From Escherichia coli (lineage in GTDB: Bacteria; Pseudomonadota; Gammaproteobacteria; Enterobacterales; Enterobacteriaceae): a DNA stretch of 10,895 nucleotides. The notes under the pieces are model-generated. The model was not told the origin of the DNA, made no database searches, and saw only the letters and a list, made by a program, of their open reading frames with translations. Shown here one piece after another: positions 1-10,895 of this stretch. The stretch is taken from NCBI RefSeq assembly GCF_003334315.1, contig NZ_QOWR01000087.1. The stretch is one strand, 5' to 3'. Numbering within the stretch: the stretch's first letter is position 1; each line of letters opens with the position of its first letter. A program made the position numbers and the translations under genes.

Positions 1-16
1 CGGTTCGGCACAAACC

Positions 17-86
17 TGTAGGCATGATAAGACGCGACAAGCGTCGCATCAGGCATTATGCGCCGACTGCCGGATGCTGCCTACGA
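17..86. repeat. REP-type extragenic palindromic repeats (BIME-like) downstream of yjjV
   Basis: Imperfect palindromes tgtaggcatgataagacgcgacaagcgtcgcatcaggcat and gccggatgctgcctac resemble the E. coli REP consensus (GCCGGATG...CCTAC). Located in the non-coding stretch 3' of the yjjV stop (95-97). Confidence 0.5.
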
Positions 87-94
87 AGGGTAAA

Positions 95-877
95 CTACCC
101 ACTAACGCTAAACAACGCATACGTATTATTAAGCAACACTTCGGCAATCTCATCTTCTGGTTCCGGGCGCAACTCGCAAAGCACGTCAAACACCCGCACA
201 GCCTGTTCCGGTCGGTTAGGCTGCCCCTGAAAGCCGTTGAGCGGCATATCCGGCGCGTCGGTTTCCAGCAACAACGATGCCAGCGGTAATTTTGCGATGA
301 CATCGCGGGTTTTACTGGCGCGTGGATAGGTGATAGTACCGCCTACGCCGATTTTGTAGCCCAGCTGTACAAACCGCTCGGCCTGTTGCAGGCTGCCGGA
401 AAAACCGTGAACCACGCCAGTGCACGGTAAATTGTGACGTTTAAGATGCATCGCCAGTTTGTCGTGTGTACGCCGGGAATGAAGGATCACCGGCAGATCG
501 TAGCGTTTCGCCAGTTTCAGCTGTTCGTCGAGTAACCACTGCTGCCTCTCAAATTGCGGATCGTCGCCGAAGAGATCCAGACCGATCTCCCCCACCGCCA
601 CCACCTTCGCCGGACGCCTTTCCAGCGCCTGCTGTAGCTGATCAAGAGACACATCGCTATGTTTTTCCAACATCCCCGGATGCAACCCCAATGCGGCATA
701 CAGCGGTTGATATTTTTCCGCTAACGCCTGCACGCGGGCAAAATTTTCCGCCTCTGTCGCCGGAACAATGATCTTGCCTACGCCCGCTTGTGCCGCGCGT
801 TGCAGGCTGGCCTCTTCATCGCCACTAAACGGCGGGAAATCAAAATGGCAGTGGGTATCGATAAAACGGCAAATCAA
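95..877 (-). CDS. yjjV: TatD-family metal-dependent hydrolase (deoxyribonuclease-like) YjjV
   Basis: 260-aa ORF beginning MICRFIDTHCHFDF with the HxH metal-binding motif typical of TatD/amidohydrolase proteins. Start codon is TTG (rc of 875-877) and overlaps the yjjU stop as TTGA; the exact start is uncertain. Confidence 0.85.
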   Translation of the reverse strand: MICRFIDTHCHFDFPPFSGDEEASLQRAAQAGVGKIIVPATEAENFARVQALAEKYQPLYAALGLHPGMLEKHSDVSLDQLQQALERRPAKVVAVGEIGLDLFGDDPQFERQQWLLDEQLKLAKRYDLPVILHSRRTHDKLAMHLKRHNLPCTGVVHGFSGSLQQAERFVQLGYKIGVGGTITYPRASKTRDVIAKLPLASLLLETDAPDMPLNGFQGQPNRPEQAVRVFDVLCELRPEPEDEIAEVLLNNTYALFSVSG

Positions 878-1947
878 GCCAGATCCTCATTGTTAAATGT
901 CGGGTCGTTCGCCTGCGGAGCATCGCTCACTTCGGCAACCAGCGTATCGTTGGCGACTGGCGCAGGCGGAATAACGATCGATTCCGGCGTCACCACTGGC
1001 ACCAGATGGCGGGTAAGCGGCGCTTTTTCAGTTAATAGCTTGCCAACCGTGGCGAGGAAATAACGACCGCATAAACGCCCAAGTTTATAGTCTTCACGCA
1101 GCGCCGGAATCCGACTGCCAAGCGCGATACTATGTAATGGTTTCGGTGGATAAATTTCGAATATCCGCAGCTTGCCCGGTGGTTTCTCAATAAATTGCTG
1201 AATGTCACGATAGCTGGTTTCATGATGCTGCACCAGATTGACCAGCGGCTGCAGGCTACTGTCACCCAGCCAGCGTTCCATGCGTTTGAACCACTGCGGC
1301 GTGTAGTACATTTGTGACGGCACAGTGCGGATGACGACCAACGTTTTAGCGCCCTGCCTTGCCGCCTCTTTAACCGGAATCGCATCACTGATCCCGCCAT
1401 CCAGGTAGTTAATGCCTTCCAGCGACACTCCGCTACGATAAAAGCCAGGTATCGCACTGGAGGCGCGAATCACATCCAGCCAGTTTTGTTTGGTTGGTAA
1501 AAAGTAATTAGGCGCGTAGTCATCCTGACGACAGGCGCACATATAAAACGATTTGCCGCTGTCAAACAACCGCGCGGCGGTATCCATTTGCAACGGCATC
1601 TGGCTTGCGGTGGCCTCCACCAGCCAGTCGAGATCGATAAGATTTCCTCCACGGACAAAGCGCAATGGATCGAAAAATTCGCGTTTTGTGGTATAGCGCA
1701 TGATGACTTTGCGCGCGTAACCGGGCTGATTGCAGATAAACGCCGAGAGGTTCTGCGCCCCGGCAGATGTGCCGAGATAAAGATCGAAAGGATTAAACTG
1801 CGCGCGCATAAACTCATCCAGCACGCCAGCCGTGAAAATTCCACGCTGTCCGCCGCCTTCGCACACCAGAGCTATTCGTCCAGGCTGGAACGGCCTTAGC
1901 GACAACGGCGCAATATTACCAAGCGTTACAGGTATTCGCTGCCCCAC
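874..1947 (-). CDS. yjjU: Patatin-like phospholipase YjjU
   Basis: ORF contains patatin hallmarks: GGGQRG oxyanion hole, GTSAG (GxSxG) nucleophile motif and a DGG catalytic Asp motif. The track ORF starts at TTG 1983 (369 aa); I chose GTG at 1945-1947 because it is preceded by AGGAAGG at a 5-nt spacing and gives 357 aa, matching my recollection of K-12 YjjU. Confidence 0.85.
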   Translation of the reverse strand: MGQRIPVTLGNIAPLSLRPFQPGRIALVCEGGGQRGIFTAGVLDEFMRAQFNPFDLYLGTSAGAQNLSAFICNQPGYARKVIMRYTTKREFFDPLRFVRGGNLIDLDWLVEATASQMPLQMDTAARLFDSGKSFYMCACRQDDYAPNYFLPTKQNWLDVIRASSAIPGFYRSGVSLEGINYLDGGISDAIPVKEAARQGAKTLVVIRTVPSQMYYTPQWFKRMERWLGDSSLQPLVNLVQHHETSYRDIQQFIEKPPGKLRIFEIYPPKPLHSIALGSRIPALREDYKLGRLCGRYFLATVGKLLTEKAPLTRHLVPVVTPESIVIPPAPVANDTLVAEVSDAPQANDPTFNNEDLA

Positions 1948-2014
1948 CTCTGCCTTCCTGTTTTTGTTGTGAAAGAATGACAAAGTAACGCAATTTATTA
2001 TTCGCTAAAACCGC

Positions 2015-2040
2015 AAAAGCCAGTCCGCTGGACTGGCTTT
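2015..2040 (-). terminator. Rho-independent terminator downstream of ytjA (possibly bidirectional)
   Basis: Perfect 8-bp GC-rich stem gccagtcc/ggactggc (2019-2026 and 2030-2037) with a 3-nt loop, flanked by AAAA and TTT. On the minus-strand transcript it is followed by UUUGCGGUUUUAGCG. Confidence 0.6.
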
Positions 2041-2068
2041 GGATAAAATTTTCTTAATGGTCTGAAAT

Positions 2069-2230
2069 CTAGGGTCGTTTTCGGCCCATGAACAAACTCA
2101 CCAGGAACAGAATAATCCCGACGACAAAGACAATTTTAGCTGCGCCTGCAGCGGTACCGGCCAGACCACCAAACCCAAGTGCGGCGGCGATTAACGCGAT
2201 AACCAGAAATATGATGCCCCAACGAAACAT
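2069..2230 (-). CDS. ytjA: Small membrane protein YtjA (UPF0391/DUF1328 family)
   Basis: 53-aa product [53 protein letters not shown], predicted as two hydrophobic helices. ATG at 2228-2230 is preceded by GGAGAC; the 63-aa upstream extension in the track lacks a comparable RBS. Confidence 0.85.
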
Positions 2231-2319
2231 AAGCGTCTCCTTTACCATAGTTAATGTCACCGCTTGATATGAGCGTGAAAATCACTCAATGCGATATTTT
2301 TAGTGTGGTGCACATCGCG

Positions 2320-2341
2320 CCTCCCGACAAAGTTCGGGAGG
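2320..2341 (-). terminator. Possible hairpin terminator downstream of osmY
   Basis: Inverted repeat cctcccga / tcgggagg with a 6-nt loop lies 16 bp after the osmY stop. The U-tract on the minus-strand transcript is weak, so termination is uncertain. Confidence 0.3.
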
Positions 2342-2356
2342 ACGAATTACGACGAA

Positions 2357-2962
2357 TTACTTAGTTTTCAGATCATTTTTAACGCTTTTCACACCATCTA
2401 CCGCTTTGGCGATACTTTCAGCACGGTCACTTTGTGCCTGAGAATCTACGGTACCGGAGAGCTGAACCACGCCATCGGTGGTTTCAACTTTCACATGACG
2501 GGAAGGGACGATATCGTCCGCCAGCAGTTTGGCTTTGATTTCACTGGTGGTGGCGGTGTCACCCGCGTAGCCCTTCACCGAGCCTTCTTTAGCGTCGCGA
2601 ACGTGCAGTTTGTCGCTGACAGAGGTCACCCCTTCAACGCCTTTCGCCACTTTCACTGCCTCTTCGGCCTGAGCCTGGCTTTCAACGAAACCGCTCAGGG
2701 TCACGACTTTTTGATCGGTTTTGACAGAGATATCGGTGCTCTTGATGTTGTCATGATCCACCAGGGCCGCCTTCACTTTCGCGGTGATGGCGCTGTCATC
2801 CATGAAATTACCGACTTTATTCATAGAGCTATCGACTTTTTGCCCTGCGCTTTCATTGGTAGTCTGCGCGTTGTTTTCCGCGTAGGCAGAGCCTGTCGCG
2901 ACGGCAGAGGTCAACATTACAGCCAGCAGAGTTTTCGAAATCTTCAGTCTTGTCATAGTCAT
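2357..2962 (-). CDS. osmY: Osmotically inducible periplasmic protein OsmY (two BON domains)
   Basis: 201-aa product starting [28 protein letters not shown] (signal peptide, AYA cleavage site) followed by two BON-like repeats. ATG at 2960-2962 is preceded by AGGAATAAATCG. The 227-aa track ORF starts further upstream without an RBS. Confidence 0.93.
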
Positions 2963-3206
2963 CGATTTATTCCTGTAAGTTTGCTCGTAATTTGAGCCTG
3001 GCAACACGAGGTTGCATTGCTGAATAGGGAGAGACTTCACCCTCTACAGAAGTCAATGGTCGCCATCACAAAAGCGATGGGTGATGAATAACGACCATTA
3101 CAGCCTCTGAATCAGTTATTAATATCGGTAGAATGACAATCTACGGCTTTAGATACTGATATCTACGCATTGAACGGTATTTAACGCCGTCAGAAATGTC
3201 ATTACT

Positions 3207-3250
3207 TTGTTAAATATAGATCACAATTTTGAAACCGCTCGGGATATCAG
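3207..3250 (-). promoter_or_regulatory. osmY sigma-S-dependent promoter region with overlapping CRP-like half-site
   Basis: Minus-strand sequence cccgagcggtttcaaaattgtgatctatatttaacaa matches my recollection of the published osmY promoter. The -10 element is CTATATT (rc of 3213-3219), with the C at -13 typical of RpoS promoters, and TGTGA falls within the spacer. Implied leader to the ATG at 2962 is about 240 nt. Confidence 0.55.
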
Positions 3251-3318
3251 CGAAAACATAAGCAAAAGTGAATGTTTTAAGAACATTCCGTAAGCGGCTA
3301 ATAAGGAAGGGAAATTGA

Positions 3319-3344
3319 CAGGGCGCAGCGGCTACCGCGCCCTG
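3319..3344 (-). terminator. Putative terminator downstream of prfC
   Basis: Hairpin cagggcgc / gcgccctg (8-bp stem, 10-nt loop) lies 11 bp after the prfC stop. On the minus-strand transcript it is followed by UCAAUUUCCCUUCCUUAUU. Confidence 0.5.
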
Positions 3345-3354
3345 GAGGCAAGAA

Positions 3355-4944
3355 TTAATGCTCGCGGGTCTGGTGGAACTGAACGTCCGGATAACGTTCC
3401 TGCGCCAGGCGCAGGTTGACCATGCTGGTAGCGATGTAAGCGAGGTTATCGCCGCCATCAAGCGCCAGTTGGCTTTCGTTCTTACGCTTGAACTCTTCGA
3501 ATTTCTTCGCGTCTGCACATTCTACCCAGCGGGCGGTGGCAACGTTGACTGATTCATATACTGCTTCAACGTTGTATTCGCTCTTCAGGCGCGATACCAC
3601 CACATCAAACTGCAGCACACCAACCGCACCAACGATCAGATCGTTGTTGGAGATTGGACGGAACACCTGCACCGCGCCCTCTTCGGAAAGCTGTACCAGC
3701 CCTTTGAGCAGCTGTTTTTGCTTCAGCGGATCTTTCAGGCGGATGCGACGGAACAGTTCTGGCGCGAAGTTCGGAATACCGGTGAACTTCATCATCTCAC
3801 CCTGGGTAAAGGTGTCGCCAATCTGAATGGTGCCGTGGTTGTGCAGGCCGAGGATATCGCCCGGATATGCTTCTTCAACGTGCGAACGGTCACCTGCCAT
3901 AAAGGTCAGCGCGTCGGAGATCACCACATCTTTCGCAGTGCGCACCTGGCGCAGCTTCATGCCTTTTTCATATTTACCGGATACCACGCGCATAAACGCC
4001 ACGCGGTCGCGGTGTTTCGGGTCCATGTTGGCCTGAATTTTAAATACGAAGCCGGTAAATTTGTCTTCGCTCGCCTCTACGGTACGGGTATCAGTCTGAC
4101 GCGGCATCGGCGCAGGAGCCCACTCCACCAGGCCATCCAGCATATGATCGACACCGAAGTTACCCAGCGCAGTACCGAAGAATACCGGAGTGATTTCGCC
4201 CGCAAGGAACAGCTCTTTGTCGAACTCATTAGACGCGCCTTTCACCAGTTCCAGTTCGTCACGCAGCTGCTGTGCCAGATCTTCACCGACCGCTGCATCG
4301 AGATCCGGGTTATTCAGCCCTTTAACAATGCGGACTTCCTGAATGGTGTGGCCTTTACCGCTCTGATAGAGATAGGTTTCGTCTTTATAAAGGTGGTAAA
4401 CGCCTTTAAACAGCTTGCCGCAGCCGATCGGCCAGGTGATCGGTGCGCAGCCGATTTTCAGCTCGTTCTCAACTTCATCGAGCAGTTCCATCGGGTCGCG
4501 GATATCACGGTCAAGTTTGTTCATAAAGGTGAGGATCGGCGTGTCGCGCAGACGGGTAACTTCCATCAGCTTGCGGGTACGATCTTCAACACCTTTTGCG
4601 GCGTCGATAACCATCAGACAGCAGTCCACCGCCGTCAGGGTACGATAGGTATCTTCCGAGAAGTCTTCGTGCCCCGGGGTGTCGAGCAGGTTAACCAGGC
4701 AATCGTGATACGGAAACTGCATCACAGATGTAGTAATGGAGATCCCACGCTGCTTTTCCATCTCCATCCAGTCCGACTTAGCGTGCTGGTTAGAGCCACG
4801 GCCTTTTACTGTACCGGCGGTCTGAATGGCCTGTCCGAACAGCAGCACCTTCTCGGTGATGGTAGTCTTACCGGCGTCCGGGTGAGAAATAATGGCAAAA
4901 GTGCGGCGCTTCGCCACCTCTTGCAAATAAGGAGACAACGTCAT
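3355..4944 (-). CDS. prfC: Peptide chain release factor 3 (RF3), translational GTPase
   Basis: 529-aa product [28 protein letters not shown] with the G1 P-loop, DTPGH G3 motif and NKLD G4 motif. ATG at 4942-4944 is preceded by a purine-rich AAGAAGAAAG stretch. The track's 538-aa ORF adds 9 codons upstream. Confidence 0.95.
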
Positions 4945-5034
4945 AATTCTTTCTTCTTGAGTAAGCGGCATCGCGCCGCGCTTGTTGAAAACGAAAAATT
5001 GCGGCTATTTTACCCATCAACGGGGGGGAGGCAA

Positions 5035-5712
5035 TCAGTGTTTACACAGGAGCTGCTCCAGTTCGTGCAACGAAGAAACGGTCCAGGTGGGCGCGATGCC
5101 TTCTGGTTGCTCGCGATTGTGCGCATTCAGCCAGCAGGTCGCAAGCCCGGCGTTGATGCCACCGAGAATATCGGACTCGGCAGTGTCGCCAACCATCAGC
5201 ACGCGTGAACGGTCAGGATTGCCCGCCTGTTCCAGCGCATAATCGAAAATTTTCTTATTCGGTTTGGCAACGCCAACTTCTTCGGAAATCACCAGCAAAT
5301 CGAAGTAATCACGCAGGCCCGTGCGTTCCAGACGCACCTGTTGCAAGGCACTAAAGCCGTTGGTGATGATGCCGATTTTGGCGTTGCCACGAATGGCGTT
5401 AAGCAGAGAAACCGCGCCCGGCAGCGGCGTGCAGATTTCCGCCATCGCATTAATAAAGGCTTCGTTGAGTTTACCCGGCTCGACGTTCAGCCGTTCGGCC
5501 CAGCTCTCGAAACGCCCGTGCTGAAGCTGTAATGAAGTGATCGCGCCGTTTTGATAATCCACCCACAGTGGCTTGTTAACGGCCTGATAGTCCTGAAAAT
5601 CTTCAGCGGTAAAGGTGACGCTGTAATCAAGAAACATCCGCTGCAGGCCGGTGAATGAGTCAAAGGTAAACAGCGTTTCATCGGCATCAAAGAAAATCCA
5701 GTCCCACTTCAT
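5035..5712 (-). CDS. yjjG: HAD-family pyrimidine 5'-nucleotidase YjjG
   Basis: 225-aa [18 protein letters not shown] with HAD motif I (DxDxT) and a C-terminal GDT..SD motif. ATG at 5710-5712 is preceded by AAGGTGGAATA. Confidence 0.93.
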
Positions 5713-5726
5713 TATTCCACCTTGTC

Positions 5727-6173
5727 TTACATACTGATTGGCAACGCCATGATGATGGCGTCTTCGCGACCGTCCGTGGTGGGGTAGTAATTGCGGCGAA
5801 TCGTCGCCTCGTTAAAGCCTAAACTTTCGTACAGGGCAATGGCGGCAGCATTTGAGGCACGGACTTCCAGCCATAGTGTCGCCACGCCGCGTTTTTCCAG
5901 TTCGTCGATCAGATGTTCCAGCAGCACCCTTCCCAATCCCTGACGCTGATAGTCAGGATCGACCGCAATATTGAACAATGTAGCTTCATCCAGCACCACT
6001 TGCGTAATCGCAAACGCCGCCATTTTGCCGTTTTGCGTTAACTGAAAGTTGAGATAACGCTCGCCCTGGTTGCTGGCAAAGGTTTTTTCACTCCACGGAA
6101 AGGCGTGGGCGCGTTGTTCAATGTGGTAAGCCGCCGGTAAATCAGTCGTTTCGAGGGAAGAAATCGTGTTCAT
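5727..6173 (-). CDS. rimI: Ribosomal protein S18 alanine N-acetyltransferase (GNAT family)
   Basis: 148-aa ORF with GNAT acetyl-CoA motif [10 protein letters not shown]. Its 5' end overlaps the 3' end of holD by 32 nt. Confidence 0.93.
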
Positions 6174-6555
6174 ATGTGCAAATTTGTTGCCATAACGCGG
6201 CGCGTGCCGTTGGGTTTGCCCGTAATTCGGTGAGCGCCGGTGATGCCACCTGAGCGCCTTCCAGTGATAGCGGTTCGTCAGTACCCAACCGCCAGCTGTT
6301 GCAGCGACTGCCTTGCGGCAGCATCGCGATTTTTTCTGGCGTCAGTTGCAGCACTTGATCGGGGCTGACGGTTAATGCGCGCAGAACATCGCTCACTAAA
6401 GGATCGGTCAGGGCGGGAAGATCGTTTGCCACCATCACCAGACGGACGTGTGCCGGGATCGCAATGGCAATCTCCCCCTGCAACGCGCCAGGGCGACGCA
6501 GCGACCACTGGGTAATGCCCAGTTGCTGTAACTGCCAGTCTCGTCGGGATGTCAT
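6142..6555 (-). CDS. holD: DNA polymerase III psi subunit
   Basis: 137-aa ORF MTSRRDWQLQQLGITQWSLRRPGA, matching HolD by sequence memory. ATG at 6553-6555; the 3' end overlaps the rimI start. Confidence 0.92.
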   Translation of the reverse strand: MTSRRDWQLQQLGITQWSLRRPGALQGEIAIAIPAHVRLVMVANDLPALTDPLVSDVLRALTVSPDQVLQLTPEKIAMLPQGSRCNSWRLGTDEPLSLEGAQVASPALTELRANPTARAALWQQICTYEHDFFPRND

Positions 6556-6598
6556 AGCGAATCGCTCCTGTTGTCAGGGGCGCAAATATAGCAAATTC

Positions 6599-6628
6599 GT
6601 CGATACCGCGCCAACATATGGCTATAAT
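6599..6628 (+). promoter_or_regulatory. Candidate sigma-70 promoter for rsmC in the holD/rsmC divergent region
   Basis: Perfect -10 hexamer TATAAT at 6623-6628, 30 bp upstream of the rsmC ATG; the -35 is weak (gtcgat-like). Inferred from sequence only. Confidence 0.35.
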
Positions 6629-6657
6629 CGCCGCCAGTATCAATTGAGGAGCATTCC

Positions 6658-7689
6658 ATGTCTGCATTTACCCCGGCAAGTGAAGTCTTGCTGCGTCACA
6701 GTGATGATTTCGAACAAAGCCGTATTCTGTTTGCCGGAGACTTACAGGATGACCTGCCCGCGCGTTTAGATACCGCGGCCAGCCGTGCTCATACCCAGCA
6801 ATTCCACCACTGGCAGGTATTAAGCCGCCAGATGGGGGATAACGCCCGTTTCAGTCTGGTCGCCACGGTGGATGACGTCGCAGATTGCGATACGCTGATT
6901 TACTACTGGCCGAAGAACAAACCGGAAGCCCAGTTCCAGTTGATGAATTTACTTTCTCTGCTGCCAGTGGGGACAGATATTTTTGTCGTTGGCGAGAACC
7001 GCAGCGGCGTGCGCAGCGCCGAGCAGATGCTGGCAGATTATGCGCCGTTGAATAAAGTCGACAGCGCTCGTCGCTGTGGCCTCTATTTTGGTCGTCTGGA
7101 AAAACAGCCGGTATTTGATGCCGATAAATTCTGGGGCGAATACAGCGTCGATGGCCTGACGGTCAAAACGCTGCCTGGCGTGTTTAGCCGCGACGGTCTG
7201 GATGTCGGTAGCCAGTTGCTGCTCTCGACGTTAACCCCGCACACGAAAGGTAAAGTGCTGGATGTCGGCTGTGGCGCGGGTGTGCTTTCAGTTGCCTTTG
7301 CGCGCCATTCGCCGAAAATTCGTCTCACCTTGTGCGATGTCTCTGCGCCAGCGGTAGAAGCCAGCCGCGCAACACTTGCGGCCAACGGTGTTGAAGGTGA
7401 AGTCTTTGCCAGCAACGTCTTTTCCGAGGTGAAAGGTCGTTTTGATATGATCATCTCCAACCCGCCGTTCCACGATGGGATGCAAACCAGCCTGGATGCG
7501 GCGCAAACGCTGATTCGCGGCGCGGTGCGTCATCTTAATAGCGGCGGCGAGCTGCGAATTGTAGCGAACGCCTTCCTGCCTTACCCGGACGTGCTGGATG
7601 AGACATTTGGCTTCCATGAAGTGATTGCGCAAACCGGGCGTTTCAAGGTGTATCGCGCCATTATGACCCGCCAGGCGAAGAAAGGTTAA
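6658..7689 (+). CDS. rsmC: 16S rRNA (guanine1207-N2)-methyltransferase RsmC
   Basis: 343-aa [15 protein letters not shown] with SAM-binding motif [12 protein letters not shown] and the NPPFH motif characteristic of N-directed methyltransferases. GAGGAG RBS lies 7 nt upstream of the ATG. Confidence 0.95.
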
Positions 7690-7700
7690 TTATCTCGCCG

Positions 7701-7880
<180 letters not shown>

Positions 7881-7928
7881 CCTGATGGACATTTTTCCAG
7901 CAATTACACCTCCGGCGATAATTAACTA

Positions 7929-7964
7929 TTGACGAAAAGCTGAAAACCACTAGAATGCGCCTCC
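7929..7964 (+). promoter_or_regulatory. Stable-RNA type sigma-70 promoter for the tRNA-Leu gene
   Basis: -35 TTGACG (7929-7934), 16-bp spacer, -10 TAGAAT (7951-7956), then a GC-rich discriminator gcgcctcc typical of stringently controlled tRNA/rRNA promoters. AT-rich sequence upstream; about 35 nt of leader before the mature tRNA 5' end. Confidence 0.5.
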
Positions 7965-7997
7965 GTGGTAGCAATTCTTTTTAAGAATTGATGGTAT

Positions 7998-8084
7998 GCG
8001 AAGGTGGCGGAATTGGTAGACGCGCTAGCTTCAGGTGTTAGTGTCCTTACGGACGTGGGGGTTCAAGTCCCCCCCCTCGCACCA
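7998..8084 (+). tRNA. tRNA-Leu (anticodon CAG), leuQ/leuP/leuV family; single copy in this window
   Basis: 87-nt sequence gcgaaggtggcggaattggtagacgcgctagcttcaggtgttagtgtccttacggacgtgggggttcaagtcccccccctcgcacca. It has class II tRNA features: long variable arm, CAG anticodon in the loop cuUCAGgu, T-loop GGTTCAAGTCC and an encoded 3' CCA. Confidence 0.95.
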
Positions 8085-8122
8085 ATTATCTTTACTTCCT
8101 TTCTTGTTTCTTCCTTGATTTT

Positions 8123-8359
8123 TCATCCCTGATTCAAATTCATTAGCATCAGCATGATGCCAGCACTAAGCGCCAGGCACGATGGTAGCAAAATGTAATG
8201 CCGTAACTGTTTGTGATACAGCATCACCGGCGTCAATATCAATCCCATCAGAATGACAATCCGCCACTGATCCGGCGATAAATCCGCATACATCAGCCCT
8301 GCAATCAGCAATCCCGGCAGCAACACTCCCCAGCCACTGCCCAGCGTACGTTGCAACAT
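8123..8359 (-). CDS. yjjZ: Small uncharacterized membrane protein YjjZ (Fur-regulated by location)
   Basis: 78-aa hydrophobic product MLQRTLGSGWGVLLPGLLIAGLMYADLSPDQW. ATG at 8357-8359. The 115-aa track ORF would start at a TTG inside the fhuF promoter / Fur-box region, which is unlikely. Confidence 0.75.
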   Translation of the reverse strand: MLQRTLGSGWGVLLPGLLIAGLMYADLSPDQWRIVILMGLILTPVMLYHKQLRHYILLPSCLALSAGIMLMLMNLNQG

Positions 8360-8377
8360 GGTTTCATCTCTTTCATT

Positions 8378-8416
8378 GATAATGATAACCAATATCATAT
8401 GATAATTTTTATCATT
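8378..8416. promoter_or_regulatory. Fur boxes (overlapping) in the yjjZ/fhuF divergent control region
   Basis: gataatgataaccaatatc (8378-8396) and atatgataatttttatcatt closely match the Fur consensus GATAATGATAATCATTATC. They lie immediately upstream of yjjZ. Confidence 0.7.
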
Positions 8417-8465
8417 TGCAAGCCAGAGAAATCCCTTGCTATCGGGTAAACCTATCGCTAGGATT

Positions 8466-8486
8466 AGCAATCATTATCATTTAGAT
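8466..8486. promoter_or_regulatory. Fur box overlapping the fhuF promoter
   Basis: agcaatcattatcatttagat contains AATCATTATC, matching the 3' half of the Fur consensus, about 15-35 bp upstream of the fhuF ATG. fhuF is a classic Fur-repressed gene. Confidence 0.6.
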
Positions 8487-8499
8487 TACTATCCCGATT

Positions 8500-9288
8500 A
8501 TGGCCTATCGTTCCGCACCGCTCTATGAAGATATCATCTGGCGAACGCATCTCCAGCCGCAGGATGCTGGGCTTGCACAAGCCGTACGTGCGACGATCGC
8601 CAAACATCGTGAACATTTGCTCGAGTTTATCCGCCTGGATGAACCCGCTCCGCTTAACGCCATGACGCTGGCGCAATGGTCATCACCGAATGCGCTAAGT
8701 TCTCTACTCGCGGTCTATTCCGATCATATCTATCGCAACCAACCAACGATGATCCGCGAGAACAAACCGCTGATCTCACTATGGGCACAATGGTATATCG
8801 GCCTGATGGTGCCACCATTAATGCTGGCGCTACTGACGCAGGAAAAGGCATTAGATGTGTCGCCGGAACATTTCCATGCTGAGTTTCACGAAACCGGACG
8901 CGTCGCCTGTTTCTGGGTCGATGTGTGTGAAGATAAAAACGCAACACCACATTCGCCGCAGCAGCGAATGGAAACGTTAATCAGCCAGGCGCTGGTTCCG
9001 GTTGTGCAGGCACTAGAAGCGACCGGAGAGATCAACGGCAAACTTATCTGGAGTAATACCGGTTATTTGATCAACTGGTATCTCACTGAGATGAAGCAGC
9101 TGCTCGGCGAGGCGACGGTTGAATCGCTGCGCCATGCCCTCTTTTTTGAGAAAACGCTCACGAACGGTGAAGATAATCCACTCTGGCGTACCGTGGTACT
9201 GCGCGATGGCCTGCTGGTGCGCCGCACTTGCTGCCAGCGTTATCGCTTACCGGATGTGCAGCAATGTGGCGATTGTACGCTGAAATGA
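8500..9288 (+). CDS. fhuF: Ferric-siderophore reductase FhuF ([2Fe-2S] protein)
   Basis: 262-aa ORF MAYRSAPLYEDIIWRTHL ending in the Cys cluster C-C-x10-C-x2-C (RRTCCQRYRLPDVQQCGDCTLK) characteristic of FhuF. Confidence 0.93.
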   Translation: MAYRSAPLYEDIIWRTHLQPQDAGLAQAVRATIAKHREHLLEFIRLDEPAPLNAMTLAQWSSPNALSSLLAVYSDHIYRNQPTMIRENKPLISLWAQWYIGLMVPPLMLALLTQEKALDVSPEHFHAEFHETGRVACFWVDVCEDKNATPHSPQQRMETLISQALVPVVQALEATGEINGKLIWSNTGYLINWYLTEMKQLLGEATVESLRHALFFEKTLTNGEDNPLWRTVVLRDGLLVRRTCCQRYRLPDVQQCGDCTLK

Positions 9289-9294
9289 AAGCAC

Positions 9295-9316
9295 TGCCGG
9301 GGAAGTAAACCCGGCA
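9295..9316. terminator. Hairpin between the convergent fhuF and bglJ genes (possible bidirectional terminator)
   Basis: tgccggg / cccggca 7-bp stem with an 8-nt loop, 7 bp after the fhuF stop and 10 bp after the bglJ stop. Flanking U-tracts are modest. Confidence 0.45.
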
Positions 9317-9325
9317 TCATGCGGA

Positions 9326-10003
9326 TTAATAGGGATGCAACACATTACTTGCTTCGCAATGCCGCATACATAACAGAATATCTGCGGCCTCCAACAACCC
9401 TGCATCAGAACTGACGCCCAGTTTCGACATCACATTAAATTTATGTGCACGGATCGTTTTGATATTGCGTTTAAGCTGCTCGGCAATTTGTGTCATTGAG
9501 TAGCCACGCGACATAAAGCGCAATATTTCTCTCTCCGTGGGGCTTAGCGTCCGGCTTTGGTTAATGTACCACTGATTGTTCAGTCGGTCGGTCGCCTGAC
9601 GTACACCATTTAATGACAAAAAGAGTTCCTGATGAAAAATCTCCAGCGTTGACGCTTTACTTAATACACCGTCCAGCGGTGATGGCGACAATGAACCAAT
9701 CAGCCGAGCTTCAATATCATCATCCGCAATAACTAAACGCCGGGTACGCGGAAACTTAATCGCCAGTTCAGTCAGGCAAGATAATCCCTCTCTGCGCTCA
9801 CTTCTCATGGCAGAAAAAGAAAAAATGACCGCCGCAAACGAGATCCGCGTCATGGCATCCTGAAATGACTCCTGACTGGTATAGGTATGGAGCTTATAAG
9901 GGTTACCCGCAAACTTTCTGAATAAACTCTCAATACCGATACTACTCATGACGCATTTTTCTATGAGTGCGACATTTCTCTTCTTAATTCGGCTGTGTTC
10001 CAT
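9326..10003 (-). CDS. bglJ: LuxR/FixJ-type transcriptional activator BglJ
   Basis: 225-aa [31 protein letters not shown] with a C-terminal LuxR-type HTH ([44 protein letters not shown]). The start overlaps the 3' end of yjjQ by 43 nt. Confidence 0.92.
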
Positions 10004-10442
10004 TCTGCGGCATCTCCATAAACAGAAGGCAAGTTAAGTTCTCTTGCACCCTGCGCGCTATTTATCCATGCATACATTTCAGCGTTGCTGTGAATTGCCA
10101 GTCGACGCATCGCACTGTTTTTTTGGGCGCTGATAGTTTTATTACTTTTCTTAAGCAATGAAGCTATCTGGTTGATGCCCCATCCTTTACCTAATAGCCG
10201 CAGTACCTTGCGCTCTGAAAGAGTGAGAATGACGGAGCGATAGCTAAAATCATGAGTTTCAGTCATTGCCGGAGAGGTCAGCATGGCGCTGATACGCTCT
10301 GCGTGCGTATTGCCGGAACGTACGGTCTTGACCAGATTCTCAATGGGTTCAACATCAGACAATAACGTCGCCGTAGGGCACATGAGCAGTTCTACTGCCT
10401 GGGAATACCAGGAGCGTGACACCATGAAAACCCAGTGAATTT
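9961..10442 (-). pseudogene. yjjQ: yjjQ (LuxR-type regulator), 3' portion only; 5' part separated by an IS1 insertion
   Basis: The reading frame ending at 9961 with a LuxR HTH ([42 protein letters not shown]) stays open upstream of the ATG at 10425, encoding ..[12 protein letters not shown].., up to the IS1 terminus at 10443. From memory full-length YjjQ is about 241 aa, so roughly 87 N-terminal codons are displaced beyond the IS. A 154-aa ORF (9961-10425) remains that could in principle be translated. Confidence 0.75.
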
Positions 10443-10895
10443 GGTAATGACTCCAACTTATTGATAGTGTTTTATGTTCAGATAATGCCCGATGACTTTG
10501 TCATGCAGCTCCACCGATTTTGAGAACGACAGCGACTTCCGTCCCAGCCGTGCCAGGTGCTGCCTCAGATTCAGGTTATGCCGCTCAATTCGCTGCGTAT
10601 ATCGCTTGCTGATTACGTGCAGCTTTCCCTTCAGGCGGGATTCATACAGCGGCCAGCCATCCGTCATCCATATCACCACGTCAAAGGGTGACAGCAGGCT
10701 CATAAGACGCCCCAGCGTCGCCATAGTGCGTTCACCGAATACGTGCGCAACAACCGTCTTCCGGAGACTGTCATACGCGTAAAACAGCCAGCGCTGGCGC
10801 GATTTAGCCCCGACGTATCCCCACTGTTCGTCCATTTCCGCGCAGACGATGACGTCACTGCCCGGCTGTATGCGCGAGGTTACCGACTGCGGCCT
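10443..10895 (-). mobile_element. IS1 insertion sequence, right end (partial; continues beyond the window)
   Basis: Terminal sequence ggtaatgactccaacttattgatagtg matches the IS1 right inverted repeat, followed by the insB reading frame. The element is 768 bp in full, so about 315 bp lies outside the window. The flanking 9 bp agtgaattt (10434-10442) is the candidate target-site duplication. Confidence 0.92.
10458..10895 (-). CDS. insB: IS1 transposase InsB reading frame (part of InsAB'), 5'-truncated by the window edge
   Basis: Translation ..[125 protein letters not shown] matches IS1 InsB. The frame is open to the window end. Confidence 0.9.

Follow-up and report, generated by a model that had tools for sequence, protein, structure and literature searches.

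The window analysed here is a 10,895-bp stretch of Escherichia coli DNA, and the only tRNA gene that ARAGORN finds in it is a tRNA-Leu with the anticodon CAG at 7998..8084 on the plus strand. The gene is 87 nt long, includes an encoded CCA end and matches the Rfam tRNA family (RF00005) at 7998..8081 with 48.5 bits, against a gathering score of 29. It is identical in 87 of 87 nucleotides to leuQ and leuV, copies 1 and 3 of the tRNA-Leu(CAG) array in both K-12 and strain ES6, and differs from the middle copy, leuP, at a single base in the stem of the variable arm (C48T). The window gene, with its C48, is a member of the leuQ/leuV isodecoder family of tRNA-Leu(CAG); the T48 variant is absent from the window. 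A variable-arm hairpin (GUCC/GGAC) is predicted in this tRNA. Its minimum-free-energy fold gives no cloverleaf, which is usual for tRNAs, and was not counted as evidence.

The tRNA gene sits alone between rsmC and yjjZ, where the initial annotation had placed it; the ARAGORN call, the Rfam match and the identity of the flanks all concur on this. Upstream, rsmC (6658..7689, plus strand) encodes the 16S rRNA m2G1207 methyltransferase in an open reading frame of 343 residues, with 100% identity to the rsmC annotated in NZ_CP124506.1 and 99.4% to that of K-12. It is followed by a REP-element region (7700..7860), which extends towards the tRNA promoter, is about 42 nt longer than its K-12 counterpart by alignment and contains a match to the Rfam family naRNA4 (RF02564; 7768..7850, minus strand, 70.3 bits). 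The spacing between rsmC and the tRNA differs among strains, e.g. 197 nt in HS30-1 and 308 nt in the window. A predicted leuQ-type sigma-70 promoter, TTGACG-16 nt-TAGAAT, spans 7929..7956 on the plus strand; it scores 10/12 in a consensus scan, matches the region upstream of K-12 leuQ exactly and would drive transcription of the tRNA gene. The GC-rich discriminator GCGCCTCC follows it directly, and the discriminator together with the 5' leader (7957..7997, plus strand) has the same sequence as the region upstream of leuQ in K-12, where the leader is removed by RNase P (PMC2190699).

Downstream of the gene, a 3' trailer (8085..8122, plus strand) beginning with ATTATCTTTACTTCC has the same sequence as the region that follows leuV in K-12. 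A terminator scan of the plus strand found no hairpin or intrinsic terminator after the tRNA; for the K-12 leuQPV transcript, Rho-dependent termination has been reported (PMC2190699). The trailer is bordered by yjjZ (DUF1435; 8123..8359, minus strand), with 100% identity to the yjjZ annotated in NZ_CP124506.1. This accession belongs to E. coli AVS0750, to which the window is 100% identical over 7300..8800 and in which the annotated order is rsmC, one tRNA-Leu, yjjZ and fhuF.

Two further elements are found towards the ends of the window. An IS1 element at 10443..10895, whose terminal inverted repeat begins at 10443, interrupts yjjQ (9961..10442), and the C-terminus of its transposase matches NF033558 at 126 bits. 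IS1 occupies the same yjjQ site in none of the complete E. coli genomes of the collection; VG1046-3E9 has an IS1 118 bp away. At the other end, positions 1..80 are part of a tandem repeat (about 101 bp) that lies upstream of yjjV (in AVS0756, the counterpart is at 197..601 of locus L113). The copy number of this repeat varies among close relatives, which explains the 101- and 202-bp length differences between genomes.

Anatomy of the probable deletion and the question of assembly

In K-12 MG1655 the same site carries leuQ, leuP and leuV in tandem between rsmC and yjjZ, in agreement with the initial annotation. Each of these genes is 87 nt long, and they are separated by spacers of 28 and 34 nt. 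Alignment of the window to K-12 pairs the region upstream of leuQ, one tRNA and the region downstream of leuV, with one clean gap. The missing block measures 236 bp (about 230 bp had been estimated), which is the length of two tRNA units and both spacers (2 x 87 + 28 + 34), and neither K-12 spacer is found anywhere in the window when up to three mismatches are allowed. The window does not have the three tandem genes with their 28- and 34-nt spacers; it does have the rsmC-yjjZ site, the leuQ promoter and leader, and the leuV trailer. A whole number of repeat units is lost, and both endpoints lie inside direct repeats. In all respects but copy number, the window locus is the leuQPV operon.

The comparison with ES6, a three-copy strain, is even closer. 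The flanks are identical right up to the tRNA, and apart from the 236-bp indel there are 0 differences in the 10,442 bases that the two sequences share. A leuQ leader joined through one tRNA to a leuV trailer is the structure expected from a crossover or slippage between leuQ and leuV. A clean, repeat-mediated deletion of 236 bp that reduced leuQ-leuP-leuV to one gene is therefore very likely to be the explanation of the window locus. The initial annotation had allowed for a genuine recombinational collapse, and this branch is supported by the anatomy described above, by 39 complete genomes with an identical allele and by the repeated origin of such alleles in E. coli.

The alternative is that the source genome has three copies and that the assembler collapsed the tandem 87-nt repeats. 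The flanks of the window, without a difference in 10,442 bp, equal those of about 24 complete genomes, all of which have three copies; every complete genome that is 100.0% identical over 1..10442 is a three-copy genome, and a collapsed assembly of an ES6-like strain would look the same. Nor does any complete genome reproduce the window as a whole, including the IS1 junction in yjjQ. One tRNA at this locus is also seen in OR845757.1, a short-read contig of low coverage from another enterobacterium, which could itself be a collapse. This record, named "Escherichia phage ECO95 1-6-1", is a 1,661-bp SPAdes node that consists of rsmC, tRNA-Leu and yjjZ of a non-E. coli enterobacterium (82-89% identity), and its single tRNA reflects either a one-copy allele that exists in nature or a collapse of short reads. 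Against an assembly collapse in the window stands the 287-nt junction, which occurs at 100% identity in the 39 complete genomes. These come from many laboratories and several countries, and their sources include human, dog, Swiss wastewater, chicken meat, imported coriander and Japanese collections. Among them, the AVS clade shows no difference from the window between 5985 and 10442, and the nearest single-copy genome, AVS0756, differs by six SNPs, all upstream of 5985. Furthermore, an 87-nt unit with unique spacers should be resolvable by 150-nt reads or by k-mers longer than 87, and the window extends 453 bp into IS1, unlike a contig that breaks at repeats. We consider an assembly collapse unlikely. 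The single copy in the window is almost certainly a genuine, recurrent and ordinary copy-number polymorphism.

Copy number of the array in E. coli and its relatives

One copy of the gene is present in 425 of 5,426 complete E. coli genomes (7.8%), counted as one full-length HSP to the single-copy configuration. About 4,966 genomes have three copies, 11 have four, and the junction counts imply that about 11 have two. The core composed of spacer 1, leuP and spacer 2 is found in 4,977 genomes, the spacer-1 junction in 4,980, the spacer-2 junction in 4,985 and the four-copy junction in 11. Ten of the 11 four-copy genomes have the arrangement spacer2-tRNA-spacer2 (spacers of 28, 34 and 34 nt) and one has spacer1-tRNA-spacer1 (28, 28 and 34 nt); examples are the O18ac:H14 strain 873.10 and Ec-U9-2. 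Such arrays are the gain products of unequal exchange between adjacent copies. The reciprocal product of an exchange between leuQ and leuV would be a five-copy array with the junction spacer2-tRNA-spacer1, and this junction is present in none of the 5,426 genomes. Examples of two-copy and four-copy arrays were verified in annotated records.

The single-copy, four-copy and leuT-duplication counts rest on an E-value threshold strict enough to admit nothing but single HSPs of full length. A count of 509 single-copy genomes based on at least 80% query coverage was rejected, as it is inflated by joined leader-plus-tRNA and tRNA-plus-trailer pieces from two- and three-copy genomes; a broad search with a 1.5-kb query was confounded by variation of the upstream REP elements. 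Inclusion-exclusion on the junction counts gives about 438 genomes with neither spacer, against the 425 counted directly, and about 13 genomes fall between the two figures. Rank sampling puts the number of O157:H7-type genomes among the 425 at about 300. Two records in these searches have an unusual form. The 655-kb record NZ_CP128951.1 of TUM2805 contains a complete single-copy junction on the rsmC side together with yjjZ, and the 294-kb "plasmid" NZ_CP170379.1 of strain 1428_w1_hybrid has a tRNA-only match and may be the one "plasmid" place in the single-copy count. Both are probably split or misassigned chromosome pieces.

At least three of the deletions are provably independent, namely those in the window lineage, in K-12 MC1061 and in O157:H7. 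MC1061 (NZ_CP195014.1) has the same 236-bp collapse and 0 differences from MG1655 in 1.6 kb of each flank. TOP10 retains the spacer-1 junction, so the MC1061 collapse is either a recent laboratory event or an assembly error. The one-copy O157 strain 7784 differs from the three-copy O55:H7 strain CB9615 by the deletion and by two flank differences, one base in each flank. More broadly, 11 single-copy representatives fall into at least eight groups of flank haplotypes, which differ at 15-126 of 2,374 aligned sites. This diversity is far above that of one spreading allele and makes at least eight independent single-copy origins probable. The events at this array are recurrent and independent, and they are accompanied by other copy-number products.

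E. coli recombines often and single-copy alleles are found on several backgrounds, so the allele of the window might have been imported by homologous recombination from another single-copy lineage. However, the window flanks match a three-copy genome of their own lineage perfectly over 10.4 kb, with no tract of foreign SNPs, and the other single-copy haplotypes differ at 15-126 of 2,374 flanking sites. An import is very improbable, and a deletion within the lineage of the window is the preferred reading.

The three-gene array is widespread outside E. coli. A scan of one genome per species for two tandem tRNA-Leu(CAG) genes returned 109 loci, in Enterobacteriaceae and Erwiniaceae. When 23 of these were scanned for tRNAs, all but one had three copies; the three-copy loci include those of E. 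albertii, Salmonella enterica arizonae, Citrobacter, Klebsiella, Enterobacter, Kluyvera, Pantoea and Erwinia. According to tblastn of the species loci, rsmC lies on one side of the array and yjjZ on the other. Three-copy arrays between rsmC and yjjZ across these genera indicate that three copies are ancestral and that one copy is derived. The reverse, an ancestral single copy that was amplified in K-12-like strains, has nothing in its favour beyond the existence of both states and practically no chance of being correct, being ruled out by the outgroup data, i.e. the same synteny with three copies in dozens of Enterobacteriaceae and Erwiniaceae species, in addition to which about 92% of E. coli genomes have three copies and the one-copy O157:H7 derives from an O55:H7-like background with three.

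Mechanism and gene dosage

The deletion would have joined copy 1 (leuQ) to copy 3 (leuV) within their identical 87-nt sequences, with a crossover somewhere inside 7998..8084. Such an event would leave intact the leuQ promoter and leader, one tRNA of the leuQ/leuV type and the leuV trailer. It was probably a homology-driven misalignment of tandem repeats, in the form of replication slippage, sister-strand exchange or RecA recombination. The preferred partners may be the two outer copies, as these are perfectly identical and the middle copy carries the C48T mismatch. Single mismatches strongly suppress deletion between tandem repeats of about 100 bp, in a manner that depends on mismatch repair. 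Deletion between short tandem direct repeats can proceed by replication misalignment or unequal sister exchange, and repeats of about 100 bp have reportedly been studied in E. coli by Lovett and colleagues. leuQ and leuV share 87 nt of uninterrupted identity and each pair that involves leuP shares only 47 or 39 nt, which could plausibly account for the excess of genomes with one copy over those with two. The link between this excess and the mismatch in the middle copy is circumstantial.

Outer copies without a difference between them, around a middle copy with 1 nt changed, are found not only in K-12 and ES6 but also in Salmonella arizonae, and in 33 of about 84 species arrays. No other pattern is as common across Enterobacterales arrays, which suggests that the leuP-type variant is being preserved and not homogenised.

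Used alone as a query, the tRNA sequence has a median of four matching places in an E. coli genome, and K-12 has four genes for tRNA-Leu1 (PMC2190699). Each of the 39 genomes with the window allele has two tRNA-Leu(CAG) places, the array gene and one other. At the level of gene counts, this bears out the lowered dosage proposed in the initial annotation: tRNA-Leu(CAG) genes are half as many as usual in window-type strains, and no additional copy compensates for the loss. Two such genes, the array gene and leuT, would have to serve the cell in place of four, without the leuP isodecoder. Expression of the remaining monocistronic operon presumably continues from its unchanged promoter, and the abundance of the tRNA in the window strain may be affected. 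The codon CUG ranks among the most abundant ones (bioRxiv 10.1101/355404). The complete deletion of leuVPQ is viable in E. coli (PMC9981150), and leuQPV does not figure among the tRNA transcription units identified as essential (PMC11480407). Redundant tRNA genes are reported to be an advantage in rich media and a burden when nutrients are limiting (Raval et al. 2023, PMC9981150).

The gene count of O157:H7 is different. Its genomes show a third tRNA-Leu(CAG) match, the source of which is a 225-bp tandem duplication in the argX operon that results in the order argX-hisR-leuT-X-leuT-proM. Element X is a chimera of the 5' part of proM and the 3' part of hisR, fused at a T-arm motif common to both, GGTTCGAATCC, and is called a 75-nt tRNA-Pro by ARAGORN. 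The duplication is seen in O157:H7 Z1816 (locus L130, 6190..6760) and in strain 9000 (L132), and is absent from O55:H7 CB9615 (L131, 43303..43739). Extra places in the argX operon occur in about 295 genomes, a figure similar to the estimate for O157-type genomes with a single array copy. Together, the collapse of the array and the duplication of leuT changed O157:H7 from 3+1 to 1+2 genes, and the extra leuT partly offsets the loss of two array copies. A phage-borne tRNA-Leu(CAG) was rejected as the source of the extra match, as only misfiled bacterial contigs matched. Both leuT copies of Z1816 (6308..6393 and 6533..6618) have a run of seven C residues instead of eight and are 86 nt long, whereas strain 9000 has eight. 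The C run of leuT is a documented indel hotspot (PMC8510543), and the difference in Z1816 may just as well be an error in sequencing the homopolymer.

The recurrent reduction of the array to one copy might reflect selected tuning of tRNA-Leu(CAG) dosage, e.g. in slow-growing or nutrient-poor niches. The great excess of one-copy over two-copy genomes (425 and about 11), the spread of the former over at least eight backgrounds and the retention of three copies elsewhere in Enterobacteriaceae are consistent with selection. So is the O157:H7 branch, which lost two array copies and gained one leuT after its separation from an O55:H7-like ancestor, a change that resembles a rebalancing of dosage. 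A purely mutational account, in which the outer copies recombine through their perfect 87-nt homology and the middle copy is mismatched, fits the same data. We regard selection on dosage as conceivable and rather doubtful.

Relation to known systems

The single-copy allele is already known in the sense that hundreds of public genomes carry it with annotation, O157:H7 references among them, and the phenomenon is textbook tandem-repeat instability. The literature searched contains papers on the biology of the operon and on engineered deletions, and no paper on natural copy-number polymorphism of leuQPV was found in it. In practical terms, a lone tRNA-Leu between rsmC and yjjZ should not be "fixed" as an assembly error. 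The locus represents a natural allelic series with one, two, three or four copies of the gene for the CUG-reading tRNA, which is the most-used leucine tRNA of E. coli.

The closest relative of the window locus is the leuQ-leuP-leuV operon of K-12 (tRNA-Leu1, CAG). The two share the site, the promoter, the leader, the trailer and the tRNA of the leuQ/leuV type, but the window is without two of the genes, both spacers and the leuP isodecoder. In the K-12 operon RNase P cuts between the genes (PMC2190699), a step that would not be needed in the monocistronic transcript expected from the window. The single-copy allele of O157:H7 (e.g. strains 7784, Sakai RIMD 0509939, SS17 and Xuzhou21) has the same leader-tRNA-trailer build and the same 236-bp loss. 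It is, however, the result of an independent event, its flank haplotype differs from that of the window at 50 of 2,374 sites, and the window's relatives have no gain comparable to the 225-bp duplication with its second leuT.

As in other deletions between short tandem repeats, the endpoints in the window lie in perfect direct repeats, whole units are lost and the flanks are untouched; at the leuQPV array, loss and gain alleles are both present in the population. The glyV/W/X/Y array, whose copy number in E. coli is three or four (McDonald et al. 2015, PMC4539685), is likewise a strain-variable tandem array of identical tRNA genes, but it concerns another tRNA at another locus, and the Leu(CAG) array is not mentioned in that paper. 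The engineered leuVPQ deletion (Raval et al. 2023, PMC9981150) shares with the natural allele a reduced redundancy of tRNA-Leu(CAG). In the engineered strain all three genes are gone, but in the natural allele one of them remains with its native promoter. With near-isogenic natural pairs (the window lineage and ES6-like strains, MC1061 and MG1655, O157:H7 and O55:H7), the effect of tRNA gene redundancy on fitness, whether a cost or a benefit, could be measured outside engineered strains.
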